A DNA stretch of 64,000 nucleotides from a virus (taxonomy: Duplodnaviria; Heunggongvirae; Uroviricota; Caudoviricetes). Under the pieces are notes generated by a model, which saw only the letters and a program-made list of their open reading frames with translations, made no database searches and was not told the DNA's origin. Shown here in pieces: positions 2,454 through 19,607 of the stretch (its first letter is position 1; the number at the start of each line of letters is the position of its first letter). The position numbers were made by a program, and so were the translations under genes. Location: IMG/VR virus record IMGVR_UViG_3300042914_003231, positions 1-64,000 of that record, one strand, 5' to 3'.

Positions 2454-2797
2454 TGTGTTTCCATAAACCAGGTTATGTATTCGCGATAAAGACCGTTAGG
2501 TCTTCTGTTCTTAAACCTGTTGCTACTAATAAAGTGGAACCATACTCCAAATAGGAATATGCTACTAAATAGGACCGCATCTACCTTTAAGTTAAACCCA
2601 TTGTCAAGGGCACTTACATAAGGTACTATAGCCGGTCTTGGATTTAGTATTCCAAATATGATGAAAACCAAGGTCTCCATCACTAGTACAGGTATCAAGG
2701 ATTGCATTAGTATCCTGAATGCTATCCTCACAAAGTTTGTTGTCTTCATACTTATAATATAAATTATTGGTGATAACATCCAGTAACGAGTTATCAA
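2450..2797 (-). CDS. integral membrane protein, 115 aa
   Basis: ORF track; several hydrophobic segments. Confidence 0.6.
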   Translation of the reverse strand: MITRYWMLSPIIYIISMKTTNFVRIAFRILMQSLIPVLVMETLVFIIFGILNPRPAIVPYVSALDNGFNLKVDAVLFSSIFLFGVWFHFISSNRFKNRRPNGLYREYITWFMETQ

Positions 2798-14158: not shown

Positions 14159-14902
14159 ATGAAAAAAAGTACAATATGGGTTATTGTGGGACTGATAGGA
14201 GTCTTGCTTATTACCCTGGCTTGGATTATGATTTATTCTAAGCCTAAACCTATTCCGGATATAAAAAATGGAGTAACCTATCATAAGATTTATAATCATA
14301 CTAAGGATTCGGTATTGGTATGGGTTACTTTGGGGGCAACCCCGGGGTGTCTGCAGGATGTGACTAAGATACCTTTTGTTACTTCTGGATCAGGGTTAGT
14401 AGGATCCTTCTACCTAGCAGCTGGTGATTCTACTATTTGGTATGCACCGGACTCAGTTGGATTCAATGGAGTATTTAGCTTTAATTATCAGCCAGATAAC
14501 TGCCCAGCTCCTACGTATCCTAACGGTATTAACCAGTATGAGTTTATAGTGAACAATGCATTCCAAGCAGGACAACCTCAAGAGAGTATCAATATCTCAT
14601 GTGTTCATGGGGTGAACTGTGTTATTCGTGTAGATATAATTACTAGTAATCCATTTAATGCCGGCTCTAAAGTTCCTGTTGTGGAAAGCTTTGCTAATAC
14701 ACTTGATCGGAATCAACTTGGTATCCCTGGTGTATACCCGTATGCGTGCACACATTGTACAGACTACATAGGAGCCCCCGGCTGTATCTCTACTCCTCAG
14801 CCTGTTTCTAAAGAACAAATCTGCCAGGTACAAAGACCAGCTAACCAATCAGGAGGAATGATAAAAGTTATATATTTAGGAAATGAAGAACCTGCAAAAT
14901 AA
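14159..14902 (+). CDS. membrane-anchored or secreted Cys-containing protein, possibly thaumatin-like fold, 247 aa
   Basis: N-terminal TM segment. The segment NQYEFIVNN...ESINISCVHGVNCVIRV resembles the thaumatin T.AEF.L...D.YDVSLVDGFN.P pattern. The ATG at 14159 is preferred over the track's TTG at 14141. Confidence 0.6.
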   Translation: MKKSTIWVIVGLIGVLLITLAWIMIYSKPKPIPDIKNGVTYHKIYNHTKDSVLVWVTLGATPGCLQDVTKIPFVTSGSGLVGSFYLAAGDSTIWYAPDSVGFNGVFSFNYQPDNCPAPTYPNGINQYEFIVNNAFQAGQPQESINISCVHGVNCVIRVDIITSNPFNAGSKVPVVESFANTLDRNQLGIPGVYPYACTHCTDYIGAPGCISTPQPVSKEQICQVQRPANQSGGMIKVIYLGNEEPAK

Positions 14903-14903
14903 A

Positions 14904-14935
14904 TTTGCATAATTAAAAAAACTATATTATATTTG
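14904..14935 (+). promoter_or_regulatory. promoter: TTTG (-33) N20 TATATTTG (-7)
   Basis: TTTG at 14904-14907 and TATATTTG at 14928-14935. Same spacing as the promoter at 16511-16542. Confidence 0.6.
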
Positions 14936-14939
14936 TAAC

Positions 14940-15011
14940 ATGAAACTGTTTTTCTTATCGTTTAGTTGTTTATGGTATCTCTCACAAGGAGGCAGCCCGG
15001 GCATTTCATGA
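14940..15011 (+). CDS. leader ORF 1, 23 codons: MKLFFLSFSCLWYLSQGGSPGIS
   Basis: ATG lies 4 nt after the -7 box. Residues 3-15 use only F, L, S, C, W and Y, the amino acids of the next 8 tRNAs. A terminator follows 36 nt after the stop. Confidence 0.5.
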   Translation: MKLFFLSFSCLWYLSQGGSPGIS

Positions 15012-15047
15012 TAGGTTTTTCATAGTTAAACATGATTAATTGACAAA

Positions 15048-15079
15048 ATCCCTGGGCTGATTACCCGGGGATTTTTTTT
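15048..15079 (+). terminator. intrinsic terminator immediately before tRNA-Phe
   Basis: 9-bp stem ATCCCTGGG/CCCGGGGAT with a 7-nt loop and T8. Confidence 0.8.
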
Positions 15080-15151
15080 GGACTCATAGCTCAGTAGGTA
15101 GAGCGCAGGACTGAAAATCCTGCCGCACTGGTTCGATTCCAGTTGAGTCCA
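15080..15151 (+). tRNA. tRNA-Phe (GAA)
   Basis: Acceptor GGACTCA/TGAGTCC; D GCTC/GAGC; anticodon arm CAGGA-CTGAAAA-TCCTG; T arm ACTGG-TTCGATT-CCAGT. Confidence 0.92.
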
Positions 15152-15156
15152 CACAA

Positions 15157-15239
15157 GCCGACACTGTAGAGTGGGAGATCTACACCAGACTGTAAATCTG
15201 GAGTCTTAGACTTTGGGAGTTCGAATCTCTCTGGCGGCA
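15157..15239 (+). tRNA. tRNA-Tyr (GTA), long variable arm
   Basis: Acceptor GCCGACA/TGGCGGC (one mismatch); arm CCAGA-CTGTAAA-TCTGG; T arm GGGAG-TTCGAAT-CTCTC. Confidence 0.85.
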
Positions 15240-15244
15240 CAAAA

Positions 15245-15330
15245 GGAAGGTTGGCAGAGCCTGGCCGATTGCACCAGTCTTGAAAACTGGAGGTCCCTTG
15301 GATCCGTGAGTTCGAATCTCACACCTTCCT
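15245..15330 (+). tRNA. tRNA-Ser (TGA)
   Basis: Acceptor GGAAGGT/ACCTTCC; arm CCAGT-CTTGAAA-ACTGG; long variable arm; T arm GTGAG-TTCGAAT-CTCAC. Confidence 0.9.
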
Positions 15331-15390
15331 CAACATGCATAGAAAAATGCACTTTTCTATACATGTTTTTTGAAAGTGCATAAAAACTAT

Positions 15391-15431
15391 ACATCTCTAG
15401 CTCAACTGGCGGAGCAGCGGTCTCCAAAACC
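15391..15431 (+). pseudogene. truncated tRNA-Trp-like 5' portion (acceptor 5' strand to anticodon loop only)
   Basis: D arm GCTC-AACTGGCG-GAGC and loop CTCCAAA. Shares the 13-mer GGTCTCCAAAACC with the intact tRNA-Trp (15419-15431 versus 15834-15846). No T arm and no 3' acceptor complement. Confidence 0.6.
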
Positions 15432-15464
15432 ATAAAGCAGTTTGGATACTGAAGTAAAAACATG

Positions 15465-15472
15465 TATATTTG
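15465..15472 (+). promoter_or_regulatory. -7 box TATATTTG, 3 nt before ATG 15476
   Basis: Matches TAnnTTTG. Confidence 0.45.
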
Positions 15473-15475
15473 TAC

Positions 15476-15817
15476 ATGCCTTCAAAAAATAAAGAAATAC
15501 TAAAAAAGCATAGAGATGCTTGGTATAAAAAGAATAAAAAAAAACAGATTACTAACCAGCTTGAAAAAAGACAGGAATTAAAGAAATGGTTTCAGGAATA
15601 TAAGAGATCATTATCTTGTAAAGAGTGTGGATTTAGCTTTGAATTATTTCCAGAATGTTGTGATTTCCATCACAGAGATGGAGATACAAAGAAAGATGTA
15701 GTAAGCAGATTGCTACCAATGGGAATAAAAGCACTAAAGAAAGAGATTGAAAAATGTGATCCTCTTTGTGCTAATTGTCATAGAAAGCTCCATGCAAAAT
15801 TAGAATATACAGGTTAG
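15476..15817 (+). CDS. HNH homing endonuclease (free-standing, inside the tRNA array)
   Basis: CKECG...CCDFHHRDGDTKKD...CDPLCANCHRKLH is an HNH/zinc-finger motif. The stop codon lies inside the tRNA-Trp 5' end. Confidence 0.8.
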   Translation: MPSKNKEILKKHRDAWYKKNKKKQITNQLEKRQELKKWFQEYKRSLSCKECGFSFELFPECCDFHHRDGDTKKDVVSRLLPMGIKALKKEIEKCDPLCANCHRKLHAKLEYTG

Positions 15818-15880
15818 CTTATTGGAAGCACCAGGTCTCCAAAACCTCGGATGGAAGGAGTTCGATTCTCTTAACCTGTG
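15809..15880 (+). tRNA. tRNA-Trp (CCA)
   Basis: Acceptor ACAGGTT/AACCTGT; D GCTT/AAGC; loop CTCCAAA; T arm AGGAG-TTCGATT-CTCTT. Confidence 0.85.
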
Positions 15881-15885
15881 CACAA

Positions 15886-15957
15886 GGTACCGTGGGTGAG
15901 GGGTTTAGCCTCAGGTCTGCAAAACCTGCTACGTCTGTTCGAATCAGACCGGTACCT
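15886..15957 (+). tRNA. tRNA-Cys (GCA)
   Basis: Acceptor GGTACCG/CGGTACC; arm CAGGT-CTGCAAA-ACCTG; T arm GTCTG-TTCGAAT-CAGAC. Confidence 0.92.
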
Positions 15958-15958
15958 C

Positions 15959-16174
15959 ATGAAAGAGATAGATGAAGAGTTCAACTTACTTCAGTTGTAC
16001 ATCTATGATTGCATCAACCGGATGTGTTTGAATGCATACATAGATAAGACTAAGTGTTCTCATCACCCTTTGTATACTTTTGAAGAATACAAAACGGCAA
16101 TATGGGATCCTTGGACTGGAGAGACTGTAGCAAGTAGAACAAGATGGGCTTTAAATATTAAGCCTTTATTTTAG
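15959..16174 (+). CDS. hypothetical protein, 71 aa, flush between tRNA-Cys and tRNA-Ser
   Basis: The ATG lies 2 nt after the tRNA-Cys discriminator. The stop TAG (16172-16174) overlaps the tRNA-Ser start (16173). The track ORF 15878.. was trimmed to the first ATG outside the tRNA. Confidence 0.5.
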   Translation: MKEIDEEFNLLQLYIYDCINRMCLNAYIDKTKCSHHPLYTFEEYKTAIWDPWTGETVASRTRWALNIKPLF

Positions 16175-16257
16175 AGAAGTGGCTGAGTGGCTTAAGGCAC
16201 CGCACTGCTAACGCGGAGGATGTAACAGTTCCACCGGTTCGAATCCGGTCTTCTCTG
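16173..16257 (+). tRNA. tRNA-Ser (GCT)
   Basis: Acceptor AGAGAAG/CTTCTCT; loop CTGCTAA; long variable arm; T arm ACCGG-TTCGAAT-CCGGT. Confidence 0.88.
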
Positions 16258-16262
16258 CAAAT

Positions 16263-16343
16263 GCCCATATGGTGGAATGGTAGACGCGCTGGTCTTAGGA
16301 ACCAGTACCGTAAGGTATGTAGGTTCGAGTCCTACTATGGGTA
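16263..16343 (+). tRNA. tRNA-Leu (TAG)
   Basis: Acceptor GCCCATA/TATGGGT; arm CTGGT-CTTAGGA-ACCAG; long variable arm; T arm GTAGG-TTCGAGT-CCTAC. Confidence 0.9.
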
Positions 16344-16348
16344 CATAT

Positions 16349-16431
16349 ACTCCTGTGGTGTAATTGGTAGCCGCGCTAGGCTTAAGACTCAGTGGACTTA
16401 GTCCGTGCCGGTTCGAGTCCGGCCAGGAGTA
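16349..16431 (+). tRNA. tRNA-Leu (TAA)
   Basis: Acceptor ACTCCTG/CAGGAGT; loop CTTAAGA (weak anticodon stem); variable stem GGACT/AGTCC; T arm GCCGG-TTCGAGT-CCGGC. Confidence 0.8.
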
Positions 16432-16474
16432 CTTTGCTCACCTGATTAATAAAGTGACCAAAAATTATTACACT

Positions 16475-16520
16475 GTCTACCAATCAGTTAGACCTTCTGA
16501 AGAAAATATTTTTGGTAGAC
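16475..16520 (+). other. 9-bp stem-loop at the end of tRNA block 1
   Basis: GTCTACCAA (16475-16483) pairs with TTGGTAGAC (16512-16520). The 3' arm overlaps the -33 TTTG of the next promoter. Confidence 0.5.
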
Positions 16521-16542
16521 TCAAACAAACCTATTATATTTG
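16511..16542 (+). promoter_or_regulatory. promoter: TTTG (-33) N20 TATATTTG (-7)
   Basis: TTTG at 16511-16514 and TATATTTG at 16535-16542. Confidence 0.6.
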
Positions 16543-16550
16543 TCTTGCAA

Positions 16551-16652
16551 ATGAAACGCATACAACATATCCAGATGGCCAATACAGGCAGAAATACGGT
16601 GGAGATTAAAGATCCGACCGTGTCCATGGGTGTTGCATGTAGTTTTAGATAA
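16551..16652 (+). CDS. leader ORF 2, 33 codons: MKRIQHIQMANTGRNTVEIKDPTVSMGVACSFR
   Basis: ATG lies 8 nt after the -7 box. Residues 2-24 use only the 14 amino acids served by the 16 downstream tRNAs, and all 14 occur. A terminator follows 28 nt after the stop. Confidence 0.5.
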   Translation: MKRIQHIQMANTGRNTVEIKDPTVSMGVACSFR

Positions 16653-16680
16653 GACATTTTTAGTTAGCTAAACCGCATTA

Positions 16681-16710
16681 AACCCCTGGACAAGTTCTAG
16701 GGGTTTTTTG
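16681..16710 (+). terminator. intrinsic terminator immediately before tRNA-Pro
   Basis: Stem (AA)CCCCTGG/CTAGGGG(TT) with a 7-nt loop and T6. Confidence 0.8.
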
Positions 16711-16718
16711 TTTTACCC

Positions 16719-16791
16719 CGGGATGTAGATCAGTTGGTAGATTGCGTGCTTTGGGAGCATGAGGTCGCAGGTTCGAGCCCTGTCATCCCGA
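16719..16791 (+). tRNA. tRNA-Pro (TGG)
   Basis: Acceptor CGGGATG/CATCCCG; arm CGTGC-TTTGGGA-GCATG; T arm GCAGG-TTCGAGC-CCTGT. Confidence 0.9.
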
Positions 16792-16847
16792 CTAGCAGAA
16801 GTGGTACTCCAGTGCCCGTACTGAAAACCAAACAAAACTGGAGACAT

Positions 16848-16920
16848 GGGGTTCAAGCACAAGCGGACGTGCATTAGCTTTGCAAGCTAGAGGATCTCGG
16901 TTCGAGGCCGAGGAGCTCCA
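16848..16920 (+). tRNA. tRNA-Ala (TGC)
   Basis: Acceptor GGGGTTC/GAGCTCC with a G3:U70 pair; D GCAC/GTGC; arm TTAGC-TTTGCAA-GCTAG; T arm CTCGG-TTCGAGG-CCGAG. Confidence 0.88.
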
Positions 16921-16921
16921 C

Positions 16922-17083
16922 ATGAATGAAGAACTATATAATTGGCTGGAGAAGATGTTTATGTTCTCCAATATCCCTAAGTACAGGAAGTACTTTAAGG
17001 AATGGGTGGACAACATAACTGAAGATCAGATCACCGGTTTTCAGAGAATGATGGGAGCCAACTATAAGATTAAGCAGGAATAG
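16922..17083 (+). CDS. hypothetical protein, 53 aa, flush between tRNA-Ala and tRNA-Gly
   Basis: The ATG lies 2 nt after the tRNA-Ala discriminator. The stop TAG (17081-17083) lies inside tRNA-Gly, which starts at 17074. Confidence 0.5.
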   Translation: MNEELYNWLEKMFMFSNIPKYRKYFKEWVDNITEDQITGFQRMMGANYKIKQE

Positions 17084-17148
17084 CTCATCCTTGGTAGAGC
17101 TCCAGTCTTCCAAACTGGAGGTGGCGAGTTCGAGCCTCGCTTCCTGCT
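17074..17148 (+). tRNA. tRNA-Gly (TCC)
   Basis: Acceptor GCAGGAA/TTCCTGC; arm CCAGT-CTTCCAA-ACTGG; T arm GCGAG-TTCGAGC-CTCGC. Confidence 0.92.
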
Positions 17149-17331
17149 CACAACTGCAGTGCCCATGTACAGTGGGGGTACAATCACTGCAGGTAGAAGA
17201 GTGCTAAGAAATCCGGTGTTGGGTTAGCTCTGGACACTAAGGTAAGGAGTGGGTAAGGACCACAGTCCCCGTCTAACAGGGACAAAGTTTTGCAAAAGCC
17301 TTCCCTGGGATGGAGCACTCTTCATGATATT
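17149..17331 (+). ncRNA. structured non-tRNA spacer RNA (unknown family)
   Basis: 8-bp hairpin CTGCAGTG/CACTGCAG (17154-17192). 10-bp long-range helix GAAGAGTGCT (17196-17205) with AGCACTCTTC (17314-17323). Inner hairpin GTCCC...GGGAC. GC-enriched; no cloverleaf. Confidence 0.4.
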
Positions 17332-17407
17332 GGTCTGTTAGGGGAGTCCGGCCGTCCCTACCTCACTGTCTATGAGGGGATCACGGGTTCGAATCCCGTA
17401 CAGACCG
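17332..17407 (+). tRNA. tRNA-Asp (GTC)
   Basis: Acceptor GGTCTGT/ACAGACC; arm CCTCA-CTGTCTA-TGAGG; T arm ACGGG-TTCGAAT-CCCGT. Position 37 is an unusual T. Confidence 0.78.
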
Positions 17408-17518
17408 CTGGGCGGTAGTCTAATGAGCAGGGTTAGTAGCGTGCTGACTAACTAGTCTTAGGACGATCATCTTATGGGATGATAGATATCAGTAACCATT
17501 CTGATCTGCCCCACCAAT
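17408..17518 (+). ncRNA. second structured non-tRNA spacer (unknown)
   Basis: Hairpins ATCATC-ttatgg-GATGAT and ATCAG-taaccatt-CTGAT; ends ...CTGCCCCACCA; repeated TAGTCT(A/T)A. Confidence 0.3.
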
Positions 17519-17590
17519 TGCCCCTTAGCTCAGCGGTAGAGCAAAACCCTGTTAAGGTTGAGGTCCTAGGTTCAATCCCTAGAGGGGCAG
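17519..17590 (+). tRNA. tRNA-Asn (GTT)
   Basis: Acceptor TGCCCCT/AGGGGCA; loop CTGTTAA; T arm CTAGG-TTCAATC-CCTAG. Confidence 0.9.
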
Positions 17591-17595
17591 CAAAT

Positions 17596-17670
17596 AGACG
17601 AGTAGCTCAGCCTGGTTAGAGCGCCCGCCTGATACGCGGAGGGTCACAGGTTCAAATCCTGTCTTGTCTA
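17596..17670 (+). tRNA. tRNA-Ile (GAT)
   Basis: Acceptor AGACGAG/CTTGTCT; loop CTGATAC; T arm ACAGG-TTCAAAT-CCTGT. Confidence 0.88.
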
Positions 17671-17727
17671 CTTTGGGACCGTTTGGTAGTGACATAGTCT
17701 TGAACTAGATCATAGAAACTATCACAT

Positions 17728-17800
17728 AGGAGTATAGCTCAGTTGGGAGAGCATCCGGTTTACATCCGGACGGTCCAAGGTTCGAGTCCTTGTATTCCTA
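17728..17800 (+). tRNA. tRNA-Val (TAC)
   Basis: Acceptor AGGAGTA/TATTCCT; arm TCCGG-TTTACAT-CCGGA; T arm CAAGG-TTCGAGT-CCTTG. Confidence 0.9.
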
Positions 17801-17884
17801 CAAACTTTAAAGATTTAAACTTATAATGTTTACACTATTAAAATATAAGGTTATAAAGAGAAGGATAAAACCTTAACTCATTAT

Positions 17885-17956
17885 TCCCTCATAGCTTAGT
17901 GGTAAAGCAGTATACTTTTAATATACGGAGCGGCAGTTCGATTCTGCCTGGGGGAA
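17885..17956 (+). tRNA. tRNA-Lys (TTT)
   Basis: Acceptor TCCCTCA/TGGGGGA; arm GTATA-CTTTTAA-TATAC; T arm GGCAG-TTCGATT-CTGCC. Confidence 0.9.
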
Positions 17957-17962
17957 CTTTAA

Positions 17963-18034
17963 ACCCCCGTAGCTCAATGGAAGAGTAAGAGACTTCTAAG
18001 CTCAAGGTTACCAGTTCGAGTCTGGTCGGGGGTT
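17963..18034 (+). tRNA. tRNA-Arg (TCT)
   Basis: Acceptor ACCCCCG/CGGGGGT; loop CTTCTAA (short GAG/CTC stem); T arm ACCAG-TTCGAGT-CTGGT. Confidence 0.82.
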
Positions 18035-18040
18035 CTGAAT

Positions 18041-18114
18041 AGGCCCTTAGCTCAGTTGGTTAGAGCAGTACTCTTATAAGGTAAAGGTCACCGGTTCAAA
18101 CCCGGTAGGGCCTA
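18041..18114 (+). tRNA. tRNA-Ile (TAT), reads ATA
   Basis: Acceptor AGGCCCT/AGGGCCT; loop CTTATAA; T arm ACCGG-TTCAAAC-CCGGT. Confidence 0.85.
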
Positions 18115-18124
18115 CATAATATTT

Positions 18125-18199
18125 AGCGGGGTGACTGGAGTTGGTTCCAGCACAGCCTCATAAACTGTACAGACGCGGGTTCGAGTCCCGCCCCCGCTA
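18125..18199 (+). tRNA. tRNA-Met (CAT), elongator-like
   Basis: Acceptor AGCGGGG/CCCCGCT; loop CTCATAA; T arm GCGGG-TTCGAGT-CCCGC. No 3xG:C initiator signature in the anticodon stem. Confidence 0.85.
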
Positions 18200-18265
18200 C
18201 AATGAGTGCTAATGACACCTGATAAAGGAGGGGATATATTACCAGGTCCCCCGACACTCAGTAAC

Positions 18266-18337
18266 GCTCCCATCATCTAGGGGTCAGGATATCAGGTTTT
18301 CGACCTGAGCACCAGGGTTCGAATCCCTGTGGGAGTA
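18266..18337 (+). tRNA. tRNA-Glu (TTC)
   Basis: Acceptor GCTCCCA/TGGGAGT; arm TCAGG-TTTTCGA-CCTGA; T arm CAGGG-TTCGAAT-CCCTG. Confidence 0.9.
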
Positions 18338-18342
18338 CTTAA

Positions 18343-18415
18343 GCTTGAGTAGCACAATTGGTAGTGCACCTCCCTTGTAAGGAGAAGGTTGTCAGTTCGA
18401 GTCTGACCTCAAGCT
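18343..18415 (+). tRNA. tRNA-Thr (TGT)
   Basis: Acceptor GCTTGAG/CTCAAGC; D GCAC/GTGC; loop CTTGTAA; T arm GTCAG-TTCGAGT-CTGAC. Confidence 0.9.
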
Positions 18416-18417
18416 CT

Positions 18418-18491
18418 GTGTCTGTAGAGGAATTGGTAGACTCCCCGGAATGTGGATCCGGTGCTTGTGGGTTCAAGTCCCATCAGACACC
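18418..18491 (+). tRNA. tRNA-His (GTG)
   Basis: Acceptor GTGTCTG/CAGACAC; arm CCGGA-ATGTGGA-TCCGG; T arm GTGGG-TTCAAGT-CCCAT. The only tRNA followed by an encoded CCA. Base -1 is T, not G. Confidence 0.88.
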
Positions 18492-18497
18492 CCATTA

Positions 18498-18571
18498 GTT
18501 CTCATAGCTCAATTGGATAGAGTCCTTGACTACGGATCAAGAGGTTGAAGGTTCGACTCCTTCTGAGAACA
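18498..18571 (+). tRNA. tRNA-Arg (ACG)
   Basis: Acceptor GTTCTCA/TGAGAAC; arm CTTGA-CTACGGA-TCAAG; T arm GAAGG-TTCGACT-CCTTC. Confidence 0.92.
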
Positions 18572-18576
18572 CATAA

Positions 18577-18647
18577 TGCCCTTTCGTCTAACGGCAGGAC
18601 CTGTGGTTTTGGGCCACATGATCGAGGTTCGAATCCTTGAGGGGCAA
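18577..18647 (+). tRNA. tRNA-Gln (TTG)
   Basis: Acceptor TGCCCTT/AGGGGCA; arm TGTGG-TTTTGGG-CCACA; T arm CGAGG-TTCGAAT-CCTTG. Followed by a T-run. Confidence 0.9.
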
Positions 18648-18680
18648 CTAGTTTTTTATTGTTTGCACATCCAAAGTTTT

Positions 18681-18716: not shown

Positions 18717-19607
18717 ATGGATGTAGTAAACTTTGATGCTCTCAAAGCACAGGGCAAAATTATAAAAATATCAGATGTGAATCCTGATGAGGATTACTTC
18801 ATCATTGGTCATTATGATCCGCGAAGAAGAGAATTTAAAGCTACTGATTACCCTATCTATGCTATAAAAGCACGTGATGTTTTAAATTCTTCAAATGCTT
18901 TTAATAATCCTTTTGATTTCTATTTAGATGGTAATGCTCCTGCAGGAGGGGATGGCTCAGCAAGTAATCCTTTTAATTTATTTTCTCAAGCCGTTGCCTA
19001 TATTAATACACTTCCTTCAGCAACATATACTCTATATGTATTGCCGTACAGTTATACAGAATCATCCCCGGTTATTAATCTACCAAACAATTCTGCTCTA
19101 AATATAATAGGAGTAGTAGCTAATTCTTGTAGCTTTAATTTTAATGTACAATTTACCGCAATACCAGCTTCCTCATATGCTGTATGGTATGAAAATATTG
19201 CTTTTAGTAATTTTGAACTAGATCTTTCTTTAGCATCTTTTGCTTCTATATCCTTTACAGGTTCTAAGGTAGATCTTATAAGAACAGATTCTAATCCTTC
19301 TACTATAGTGACATTACAAGGTGCAATGTTTGCCTCTACCCTTTCCGGTAGAGTTTTATGGTTAAATGGTGTAATGTTTGGTGATATTAATGTTCAAACA
19401 AATGGTGAGTTGTTTTGTAATACGGTATTACAACTACAAGGACAATTTAAGTTAACAGGATCTGCTAAGTTAAAAACTTTAAGTATGCCAAACCCTACAC
19501 CTAATGGTGTAGATGGTATTCCTGTAGGTTTGAATATACCGGTTTGGAGAACTGATGCTGCAAGTGATGAAACTTTTACAGGAACTCTTACAAAAATAAT
19601 ATATTAA
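18717..19607 (+). CDS. tail fibre or receptor-binding protein, 296 aa
   Basis: The N-terminal ~55 aa are paralogous to 19610..20287 (ALKAQGKIIKISD...DYFIIGHY versus LIAQGKILKASE...DYLIIGKY). First gene after the tRNA array. Confidence 0.55.
   Translation: MDVVNFDALKAQGKIIKISDVNPDEDYFIIGHYDPRRREFKATDYPIYAIKARDVLNSSNAFNNPFDFYLDGNAPAGGDGSASNPFNLFSQAVAYINTLPSATYTLYVLPYSYTESSPVINLPNNSALNIIGVVANSCSFNFNVQFTAIPASSYAVWYENIAFSNFELDLSLASFASISFTGSKVDLIRTDSNPSTIVTLQGAMFASTLSGRVLWLNGVMFGDINVQTNGELFCNTVLQLQGQFKLTGSAKLKTLSMPNPTPNGVDGIPVGLNIPVWRTDAASDETFTGTLTKIIY

Follow-up and report, generated by a model that had tools for sequence, protein, structure and literature searches.

A probable HNH homing cassette with its own tRNA-Trp in the tRNA-Trp gene of a Caudoviricetes tRNA array

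The 64,000-nucleotide (nt) window analysed here (positions 1 to 64,000 of the IMG/VR record IMGVR_UViG_3300042914_003231, Caudoviricetes) carries a tRNA array, near the start of which the resident tRNA-Trp gene has been broken by an insert of ~450 bp. This insert is best described as a mobile cassette consisting of a leader, a free-standing HNH homing-endonuclease gene and a tRNA-Trp of its own, and homing driven by the HNH enzyme is probably the process that placed it there. At the level of sequence comparison, the data presented below establish the insertion and its polarity, its left junction, the import of a tRNA-Trp, and the link of this HNH family both to tRNA-Trp and to tRNA 5' ends.

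The left end of the element is a truncated tRNA gene. The segment 15391-15431 possesses a 5' acceptor strand (ACATCTC), a D arm, the 5' strand of the anticodon stem, a CTCCAAA loop and a terminal ACC, and is followed by neither a T arm nor a 3' acceptor strand. By alignment, it is the 5' 41 nt of the resident tRNA-Trp gene; this identity is settled because the segment matches nt 1-41 of the tRNA-Trp found at the syntenic position in two related loci, L094 (38/41 identical) and L180 (36/41). A covariance model of tRNA 5' halves (model R1; acceptor strand, D arm and anticodon arm), derived from 78 non-Trp tRNAs, scores this scar at 21.6 bits, with E=0.003 across the whole window, which is within the range of real tRNAs, and the scar is the sole match with E<0.05 outside the called tRNAs of the window. 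When the Rfam tRNA model is run in truncated mode, 15391-15433 falls on its positions 1-42, at only 12.4 bits. The missing 3' half of the resident gene (T arm and GAGATGT) was searched for across the window and none was found. The exact scar sequence has no match in IMG/VR, and a search with a 19-mer common to the scar and L094 returned L094's own contig only. The 13-mer GGTCTCCAAAACC, which spans the anticodon region, is present both in the scar (15419-15431) and in the tRNA-Trp further downstream (15834-15846), while none of about 800 mismatched pairs of upstream and downstream control sequences shared a stretch of at least 13 nt. A sequence-only reading of this locus had described a tRNA-like fragment without T arm and 3' acceptor strand, a 13-mer shared with an intact tRNA-Trp, an HNH open reading frame (ORF) at 15476-15817 between the two copies and a stop codon lying inside the intact tRNA. 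All of these stand, the overlap of ORF and tRNA being 9 nt. Conversely, there is little of the D-arm similarity that it saw between the fragment and the intact tRNA, since the latter has an aberrant 5' half with a short D loop.

Syntenic relatives were reached through a 247-amino-acid (aa) protein encoded just upstream (14159-14899), homologs of which are 55% identical in L094, an IMG/VR contig, and 74% identical in L180/L181/L182; the protein encoded downstream of the array (18717-19604) retrieved no related loci when used as a query. In L094 the tRNA order is Phe-Tyr-Ser(tga)-Trp-Cys-Ser(gct)-Leu-Leu-Pro..., no ORF lies in the stretch from Ser(tga) to Cys, and the same order recurs in L180/L181/L182, where an uninterrupted tRNA-Trp lies between tRNA-Ser(UGA) and tRNA-Cys. 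In a further contig, L179, Ser is followed by Trp, at which point the contig stops. Searching the L094, L179 and L180-182 loci by tblastn with the HNH protein produced no match. L093, which is the window's phage recovered from another sample (99.98% identical), has the identical arrangement, HNH gene included. The HNH gene is hence a presence/absence polymorphism at one locus among collinear relatives, and the comparison with HNH-less relatives that the sequence-only reading had proposed does yield empty sites, in L094 and in L180/L181/L182.

The resident tRNA-Trp genes read ACATCTCTAGCTCAACTGGTAGAGCAGTGGTCTCCAAAACCAAAGGTTGTAGGTTCGATTCCTGCGAGATGTG in L094 and ACATCTCTGGCGCAACTGGTAGCGCAGCGGTCTCCAAAACCGAAGGCTGCAGGTTCGACTCCTGCGAGATGTG in L180. 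Positions 15300-15431 of the window are identical to L180 at 124 of 132 sites, and the blastn alignment between the two ends at 15431, that is, at nt 41 of the tRNA, to restart only at 16172, at the start of tRNA-Ser(GCU). The acceptor stem gives the polarity of the event. In both L094 and L180 the strands ACATCTC and GAGATGT pair perfectly, and GAGATGT also pairs with the ACATCTC of the scar, whereas the 3' strand of the downstream tRNA-Trp of the window, AACCTGT, is unable to do so. Therefore, the downstream tRNA-Trp is not the 3' half of the old gene fused to a new 5' half, and L094 and L180 are not deletion products of the arrangement seen in the window. The simplest history compatible with these alignments would be an insertion in the window lineage, in the course of which nt 42-74 of the resident gene were lost and a complete, different tRNA-Trp was gained. 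The earlier proposal that a fresh tRNA copy had been carried in together with the endonuclease gene is thereby borne out, as the acceptor stem marks the downstream tRNA-Trp as a different gene.

The product of the 113-aa ORF matches PHROG 3106/2255 ('HNH endonuclease') with E about 1e-21, and the residues C48xxC51, H65-H66 and C98xxC101-H102 are invariant in 28 homologs. Its AlphaFold2 model (predicted local distance difference test score, pLDDT, 94.7) consists of a long N-terminal helix followed by a strand-strand-helix unit (strands 62-66 and 94-98, helix 99-112). Invariant residues and model together describe a beta-beta-alpha-metal core with a catalytic His and a Cys4 zinc site. The Pfam HNH profile is reached at E<=0.01 by 8 of the 28 homologs, and a profile search of PDB sequences gave a marginal match to McrA only. 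Membership in the HNH (His-Me finger) group is thus established at the motif and profile level. The ORF starts 44 nt past the junction with its own ATG, outside any intron or intein; an Rfam scan of the locus for intron families returned no match even at E<=10. It is the sole ORF in the insert, which has no integrase.

The tRNA-Trp brought by the cassette has a perfect 7-bp acceptor stem (ACAGGTT/AACCTGT), a CCA anticodon, a G73 discriminator and a TTCGATT loop, and its first 9 nt are at the same time the last three codons of the HNH ORF (ACA GGT TAG). With an Rfam score of 30.8 bits, against a gathering score of 29, it is the lowest-scoring of the 8 tRNAs in the Rfam-scanned stretch 14900-16500; it departs from the norm in having a single connector nucleotide where two are expected, a D loop of 5 nt and a C-C mismatch, and its 5' half is missed by the 5'-half covariance model. 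Comparable sequences accompany two of the HNH homologs. In L001 and L006 (HNH proteins 61% and 56% identical to that of the window), Trp-like sequences with a CTCCAAA loop overlap the ORF stop, and their acceptor strands (GCAGGTC/GGCCTGT in L001, ACAGGCT/AGCCTGT in L006) resemble those of the window tRNA, unlike the resident ACATCTC/GAGATGT; neither sequence is detected by ARAGORN or Rfam. On this evidence, we read the HNH gene and the tRNA-Trp as travelling together as a cassette, and the 5' part of the tRNA as being under the conflicting constraint of encoding the HNH C-terminus. The HNH-linked copies look progressively degenerate at the ORF overlap (window 15809-15881, L001 2443-2516, L006 4333-4403), the one in L006 having a non-canonical T loop. 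Such a degenerate gene may perhaps be the sole tRNA-Trp that these phages encode.

The association with tRNA-Trp extends beyond this locus. Homologs of the HNH gene were collected from IMG/VR, JGI metagenomes and other assemblies, giving 168 loci that fall into 120 clusters at 90% protein identity. tRNAs are present in the locus in 52 of the 120 clusters, and directly adjoin the HNH gene on the same strand in 38. Across the 120 non-redundant loci, tRNA-Trp accounts for 11 of 55 adjacent but only 4 of 329 non-adjacent tRNAs (Fisher p=1.8e-7), and for 7 of the 23 adjacent tRNAs when the HNH protein is at least 46% identical to that of the window. The end of the ORF is also tightly placed: 21 of 31 downstream tRNAs start within -27 to +9 nt of the stop codon, and the tRNAs lying in this interval are well-formed tRNA-Trp (37-69 bits) in L003, L013, L098, L103, L128, L136 and L169.

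Further scars were recognized in other members of the family. In L011/L097 (...GGGGCTCCAAACC / TTATATTGACA) and in L108 (...TTGGCTCCAAACC / ATAAATTGACA), a 5' tRNA-Trp fragment breaks 2 nt past the CTCCAAA loop and is followed by a TTGACA-17-TATAAT promoter and then by the HNH gene; in L010, the HNH gene is preceded by an intact tRNA-Trp to which both fragments are homologous. The two were spotted by eye, and their assignment comes from the alignment to the L010 tRNA-Trp, since the 5'-half model does not detect them. L119 reproduces the architecture of the window with another isotype: an orphan tRNA-Lys-like 5' half (2414-2455, anticodon CUU, 17.3-17.9 bits) broken at about nt 42 is followed by the HNH gene (2501-2833) and by a full tRNA (2824-2895, anticodon UUU, 41 bits) that overlaps the stop. 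Taken together, the breaks in the window, in L011/L108 and in L119 mean that breakpoints at nt 40-42 recur in unrelated tRNA lineages. When orphan tRNA pieces were sought by blast beside all HNH genes, the scar of the window alone was recovered, and a screen for the CTCCAAA motif was discarded for its false positives at tRNA 3' CCA ends (L105).

Other arrangements of tRNAs are encountered around these genes. More distant HNH relatives display a mirror-image layout, in which an intact tRNA (Pro or Trp) is followed by the HNH gene and by an orphan 3' piece comprising T arm and acceptor (Table 1); in L074 (Pro), 17 nt of the tRNA 3' end and trailer are repeated, and L007 (4322-4352) is a possible further case. 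In L060 the HNH gene has tRNA-Pro on both sides. In L102 (about 1085-1160) and L109 (about 175-250), a tRNA with a CUA anticodon (an amber suppressor, called 'Pyl' by ARAGORN) lies 10 nt upstream of the HNH homolog and a tRNA-Ser 3 nt downstream of it, which suggests that HNH elements also adjoin suppressor tRNAs, in phages that may recode stop codons.

Between the scar and the start codon, the leader contains a TATATTTG box (15465-15472) that conforms to TAnnTTTG and lies 3 nt ahead of the HNH start codon; the sequence-only reading had also assigned the ORF a box of its own. TAnnTTTG boxes also precede the start codon in L001 (TACCTTTGttcGTG, at 3 nt) and L095 (TATATTTGatacATG, at 4 nt), and a TATATTTG box is likewise found at 14928-14935, ahead of the tRNA array. 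This motif, which we take to be the Bacteroidota -7 type box, points tentatively to a host among the Bacteroidota and to an HNH mRNA that is leaderless; as a motif, TANNTTTG shows no enrichment window-wide (79 observed vs 80 expected). The leader is also predicted to form a hairpin with the scar, the arms being GTCTCCAAA (15420-15428) from the anticodon arm of the scar and TTTGGATAC (15441-15449) from the cassette. The TTTGGATAC(T) arm is found again upstream of the HNH homologs in L001 and L003, where its partner is AGTATCCAAA or GTATCTAAA; L095 has the variant TTTGGATTC, with the partner arm missing. Hairpins likewise precede the HNH gene in L030 (CTCCAAATA/TATTTGGAG) and in L001 (AGTATCCAAATA..., z=-6.1), and the distance from hairpin to start codon is 24 nt both in the window and in L001. 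The hairpin arms in L001, L003 and L030 thus indicate that the cassette leader tends to hold a Trp-anticodon-loop-like sequence, and this leader sequence may have begun as an earlier scar, since eroded, or may serve as a homology arm or as a regulatory hairpin. The stability of the window hairpin is at the level of shuffled sequence (z=0.03). A T-arm origin of TTTGGATACTG was also considered; the match is limited to 8 of 12 bases, and complementarity within the hairpin accounts for it better. In L004 (4319-4389; also L005), the HNH homolog (52% identical) overlaps a tRNA (45.6 bits, anticodon loop CTCTGAA) not called by ARAGORN, and the hairpin upstream of this HNH gene also holds TCTCTGAAC, an echo of the Trp anticodon-loop-like leader.

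The flanks of the insert were compared with the HNH-less relatives. On the left, the 59-nt hairpin spacer in front of the scar was considered as part of the insertion and rejected: it is ancestral, because it is already present in the HNH-less L180 (56/59 identical) and also in L181 and L182; the L094 and L179 spacer is 4 nt long. Its hairpin folds at -12.3 kcal/mol (z=-2.8) and, together with the T6 run, would halt read-through into the Trp position from within the tRNA array. On the right, positions 15432-16171 are uncovered by any blastn alignment of the window to L180, and a single blastn alignment running from the anticodon region of the tRNA-Trp through tRNA-Cys is 81% identical to L094. 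The gap between tRNA-Cys and tRNA-Ser(GCU) is 2 nt in L180 and 8 nt in L094, and the 71-aa ORF that occupies it in the window (MKEIDEEFNLLQLYIYDC...) is absent there. Among the fetched loci a homolog of this ORF occurs only in the near-identical L093, and no Pfam family scores above its curated cut-off, the only match being MACPF_D3 at E=0.17 (12.5 bits vs 25). The ORF may have arrived by a second, separate insertion, or else mark where the imported block ends, and tRNA-Cys possibly lies inside a co-converted block. A block as divergent from L180 as 15432-16171 beside a left flank that is 94% identical is suggestive of co-conversion of flanking markers, with which it fits without proving it.

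How the cassette would have spread can be outlined as follows. During co-infection, the HNH enzyme would nick or cut HNH-less tRNA-Trp genes in or near the anticodon/variable region, and repair from the HNH-bearing genome would install the gene together with the linked tRNA-Trp, possibly along with tRNA-Cys and the 71-aa ORF, the left crossover falling in the anticodon arm. The linked tRNA-Trp would itself escape cutting, as its sequence departs from that of the resident type to either side of the anticodon loop and the 13-mer. The end of the HNH ORF, two sense codons and the stop, lies inside the tRNA, so that maturation of this tRNA by RNase P would strip these three codons from the HNH mRNA and keep expression low. 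Several observations weigh against homing as the explanation. The 13-mer around the anticodon is identical in resident-type and cassette tRNAs, and therefore any immunity must rest on the flanking bases. By overall identity, the cassette tRNA does not group clearly with its counterparts in L001 and L006 as against the resident type; their link is drawn from the acceptor stem and the shared ORF overlap. As many as 68 of the 120 clusters have no tRNA within about 2.5 kb, so that the HNH family is not limited to tRNA genes, and the closest homolog, L095 (66%), has no tRNA-Trp beside its HNH gene. No donor phage with an identical cassette was found among the loci collected. Finally, the window protein misses the gathering threshold of Pfam HNH (PF01844; 13.6 bits vs 21.4), and Foldseek found nothing significant in the PDB, the best matches being to HNH enzymes (Cap5, T4 endonuclease VII and GVE2 HNH).

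Some of these points would equally suit an HNH gene that is a mere passenger, moved by illegitimate or short-homology recombination between the tRNA genes of co-infecting phages, with an enzyme devoid of tRNA-Trp specificity and a junction that simply reflects the 13-nt identity. The position of most family members away from tRNAs and the lack of an adjacent tRNA-Trp in L095 are in line with such an origin, and so is the mosaicism of the tRNA arrays between relatives, the tRNA-Cys of the window being aligned by blastn to L094 and not to L180. We nevertheless consider it improbable, given that tRNA-Trp is enriched about 20-fold beside the HNH gene, that breaks at nt 40-42 are shared by tRNA lineages with no relation to one another (the window, L011/L108 and L119), and that the ORF end is held so tightly against tRNA 5' ends (21/31 at -27 to +9). 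A somewhat better case, although still a doubtful one, can be made for a function of the fragment, a reading that is compatible with the insertion itself: the anticodon arm of the scar would have been kept for the hairpin with TTTGGATAC, as a terminator or processing site, a target-like operator or a left homology arm. The Trp-anticodon-loop-like hairpin arms that precede the HNH gene in L001, L003 and L030 and the 24-nt spacing shared with L001 speak for it; the window hairpin, however, is no steadier than shuffled sequence, and L095 and L006 do without such an arm.

Two explanations dispense with an invasion of the resident tRNA-Trp by a cassette bearing its replacement. In the first, the phage would once have had two tandem tRNA-Trp genes, which the HNH gene separated by its insertion before the 3' half of the upstream copy was lost; a pair of tRNAs of one isotype does flank the HNH gene in some family members, such as L060 (Pro-HNH-Pro). 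We judge this very unlikely, since all three HNH-less relatives have a single tRNA-Trp, the two copies in the window share the 13-mer only and have incompatible acceptor stems, and both the acceptor type of the downstream copy and its overlap with the ORF are found again in the HNH-linked copies of other phages. Least credible of all, with a probability close to nil, is an interrupted gene, in which the scar and the downstream piece would be exons of one tRNA-Trp separated by an intron carrying the HNH ORF. Group I introns with endonuclease ORFs do occur in the anticodon loops of bacterial tRNAs (PMC3984707); yet no 3' exon (T arm and GAGATGT) is found anywhere in the window, no intron family matches at E<=10, the 44-nt leader and the ORF are too small for a ribozyme core, and the break follows nt 41, outside the loop. 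A split or intron-containing tRNA-Trp was consequently dropped for want of a ribozyme core match and a 3' exon. Insertion of a cassette into the resident tRNA-Trp, probably through homing, therefore remains our preferred explanation, and the sequence-only reading of the locus as a scar of intron-less homing is upheld for the most part.

The locus studied is the start of an array of 24 tRNA genes on the + strand (15080-18648; ARAGORN) that covers all 20 amino acids, and its features are collected in Table 1. Comparison of the region and 15 kb of flanking sequence with an annotated phage collection by BLAST gave generic tRNA matches or nothing. Further along the array, 18041-18115 is a tRNA-Ile with a genomic TAT anticodon according to ARAGORN, and the syntenic position of L094 (8962-9037) holds a tRNA with a CAT anticodon; a true UAU tRNA-Ile is uncommon in bacteria and phages.

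Table 1. Coordinates of the features at the start of the tRNA array in the window, and of the loci with a mirror-image layout
Feature	Position	Strand	Basis and remarks
tRNA-Ser(UGA)	15245-15331	+	ARAGORN; left syntenic anchor, also precedes tRNA-Trp in L094, L179 and L180
59-nt spacer	15332-15390	+	Terminator-like hairpin: stem 15332-15367, T run 15366-15371
Scar, nt 1-41 of resident tRNA-Trp	15391-15431	+	Alignment to L094/L180 tRNA-Trp; 5'-half model
Hairpin, scar anticodon arm and cassette sequence	15418-15451	+	Fold prediction
Cassette leader, 44 nt	15432-15475	+	No counterpart in L180 or L094
HNH ORF, 113 aa, free-standing	15476-15817	+	ATG start; TAG stop 15815-15817
tRNA-Trp(CCA), cassette-borne ('Trp*')	15809-15881 (ARAGORN), 15809-15880 (Rfam)	+	ARAGORN, Rfam
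tRNA-Cys	15886-15958	+	ARAGORN; right flank
71-aa ORF	15959-16174	+	Between tRNA-Cys and tRNA-Ser(GCU)
tRNA-Ser(GCU)	16173-16258	+	ARAGORN
Mirror-image locus L074	2244-2318, 2750-2776		
Mirror-image locus L018 (also L019)	2243-2319, 2711-2740		
Mirror-image locus L030	2346-2419, 2819-2845		

Among characterized systems, the closest parallel in genomic role is segB of phage T4, a free-standing gene in a tRNA cluster that is absent from relatives and drives the inheritance of itself and of the neighbouring tRNAs (PMC2330249). SegB recognises the T-psi-C motif of tRNA genes, and it has been proposed that maturation of the downstream tRNA-Arg severs the segB mRNA after its last sense codon, ahead of the stop (PMC2330249); SegB has recently been shown to be widely associated with tRNAs, with no isotype preference (PMC2330249, PMC13096335). 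The analogy with T4 Seg-type endonucleases that was drawn from the sequence at the outset therefore holds in detail, comprising the tRNA cluster, the motif within tRNA genes and the stop-removing maturation proposed for segB. Like segB, the window's HNH gene is a free-standing nuclease gene in a phage tRNA array, missing from close relatives and with a hairpin at its 5' end; a target within tRNA genes and co-inheritance of flanking tRNAs are, for the HNH gene, both proposed. The enzymes themselves are dissimilar: SegB is of the GIY-YIG type, and as the HNH protein has no GIY-YIG catalytic domain, the resemblance is one of genomic role only. Moreover, whereas SegB uses the universal T-psi-C motif, this HNH clade is linked to tRNA-Trp, with junctions on the 3' side of the anticodon arm instead of in the T arm, and, unlike the segB locus, the window keeps the truncated target as a scar, a tRNA of the same isotype having come in with the cassette to replace it.

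PMC2330249 also cites the T5 enzymes F-TflI/II/IV, HNH site-specific endonucleases encoded in the tRNA gene region of that phage, for which expression control through processing of tRNA precursors has been proposed. The window's gene is similar in being an HNH free-standing ORF inside a phage tRNA cluster, a likeness drawn from their description. The T5 F-Tfl enzymes are nicking enzymes with sites in T5 DNA, and we know of no tRNA-isotype link or tRNA-fragment scar described for them. Intron-encoded endonucleases that act on tRNA anticodon regions offer another comparison: I-SspI, encoded by an intron in a cyanobacterial tRNA-fMet, targets the anticodon region of one specific tRNA gene. In such systems, the group I intron is self-splicing and leaves the tRNA functional, whereas the window has no intron, the target gene is lost and the tRNA comes from a separate copy. 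The insert likewise recalls integrase islands and prophages, in that a tRNA gene serves as the landing site and a partial tRNA duplicate flanks the inserted DNA. Those elements, however, employ an integrase and duplicate the tRNA 3' end via attP/attB; here the insert measures ~450 bp, leaves a 5' fragment, contains a whole different tRNA and encodes no integrase. As judged from its organization, the locus is neither a group I intron, nor an integrase island, nor a tandem duplication. An HNH gene in a tRNA array is by itself unsurprising; it is the apparent tRNA-Trp specificity, the recurrent breakpoint and the replace-the-target layout that appear to be distinctive.

These features raise the possibility, which we put forward tentatively and regard as less likely than not, that the HNH clade acts as an isotype-specific gene drive that replaces the tRNA it attacks. 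Its members would break the target tRNA at nt about 40-43 and install themselves along with an immune tRNA of the same isotype, the Lys loci being sisters and the Pro loci a mirror-image version of the same scheme; the hairpin would serve as homology arm or operator, and the linked tRNA would decay, as in L001 and L006, thereby both shaping and eroding phage tRNA repertoires.

Whatever the fate of this broader idea, the locus and its relatives constitute a natural before-and-after pair for the invasion of a tRNA gene by a free-standing endonuclease gene: the sequences show the site both empty and filled, place the left junction exactly and reveal the replacement tRNA that was imported. For annotation, two cautions follow: of the tRNA-Trp sequences, the 'intact' one in this phage may be the poorer, and where half a tRNA stands alone next to a small HNH ORF, it is to be taken as a scar, not as a novel RNA. 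More generally, our observations suggest that such elements drive some of the turnover, duplication and pseudogenisation seen among phage tRNA arrays, a view that complements recent work in which SegB was shown to reshape tRNA loci.

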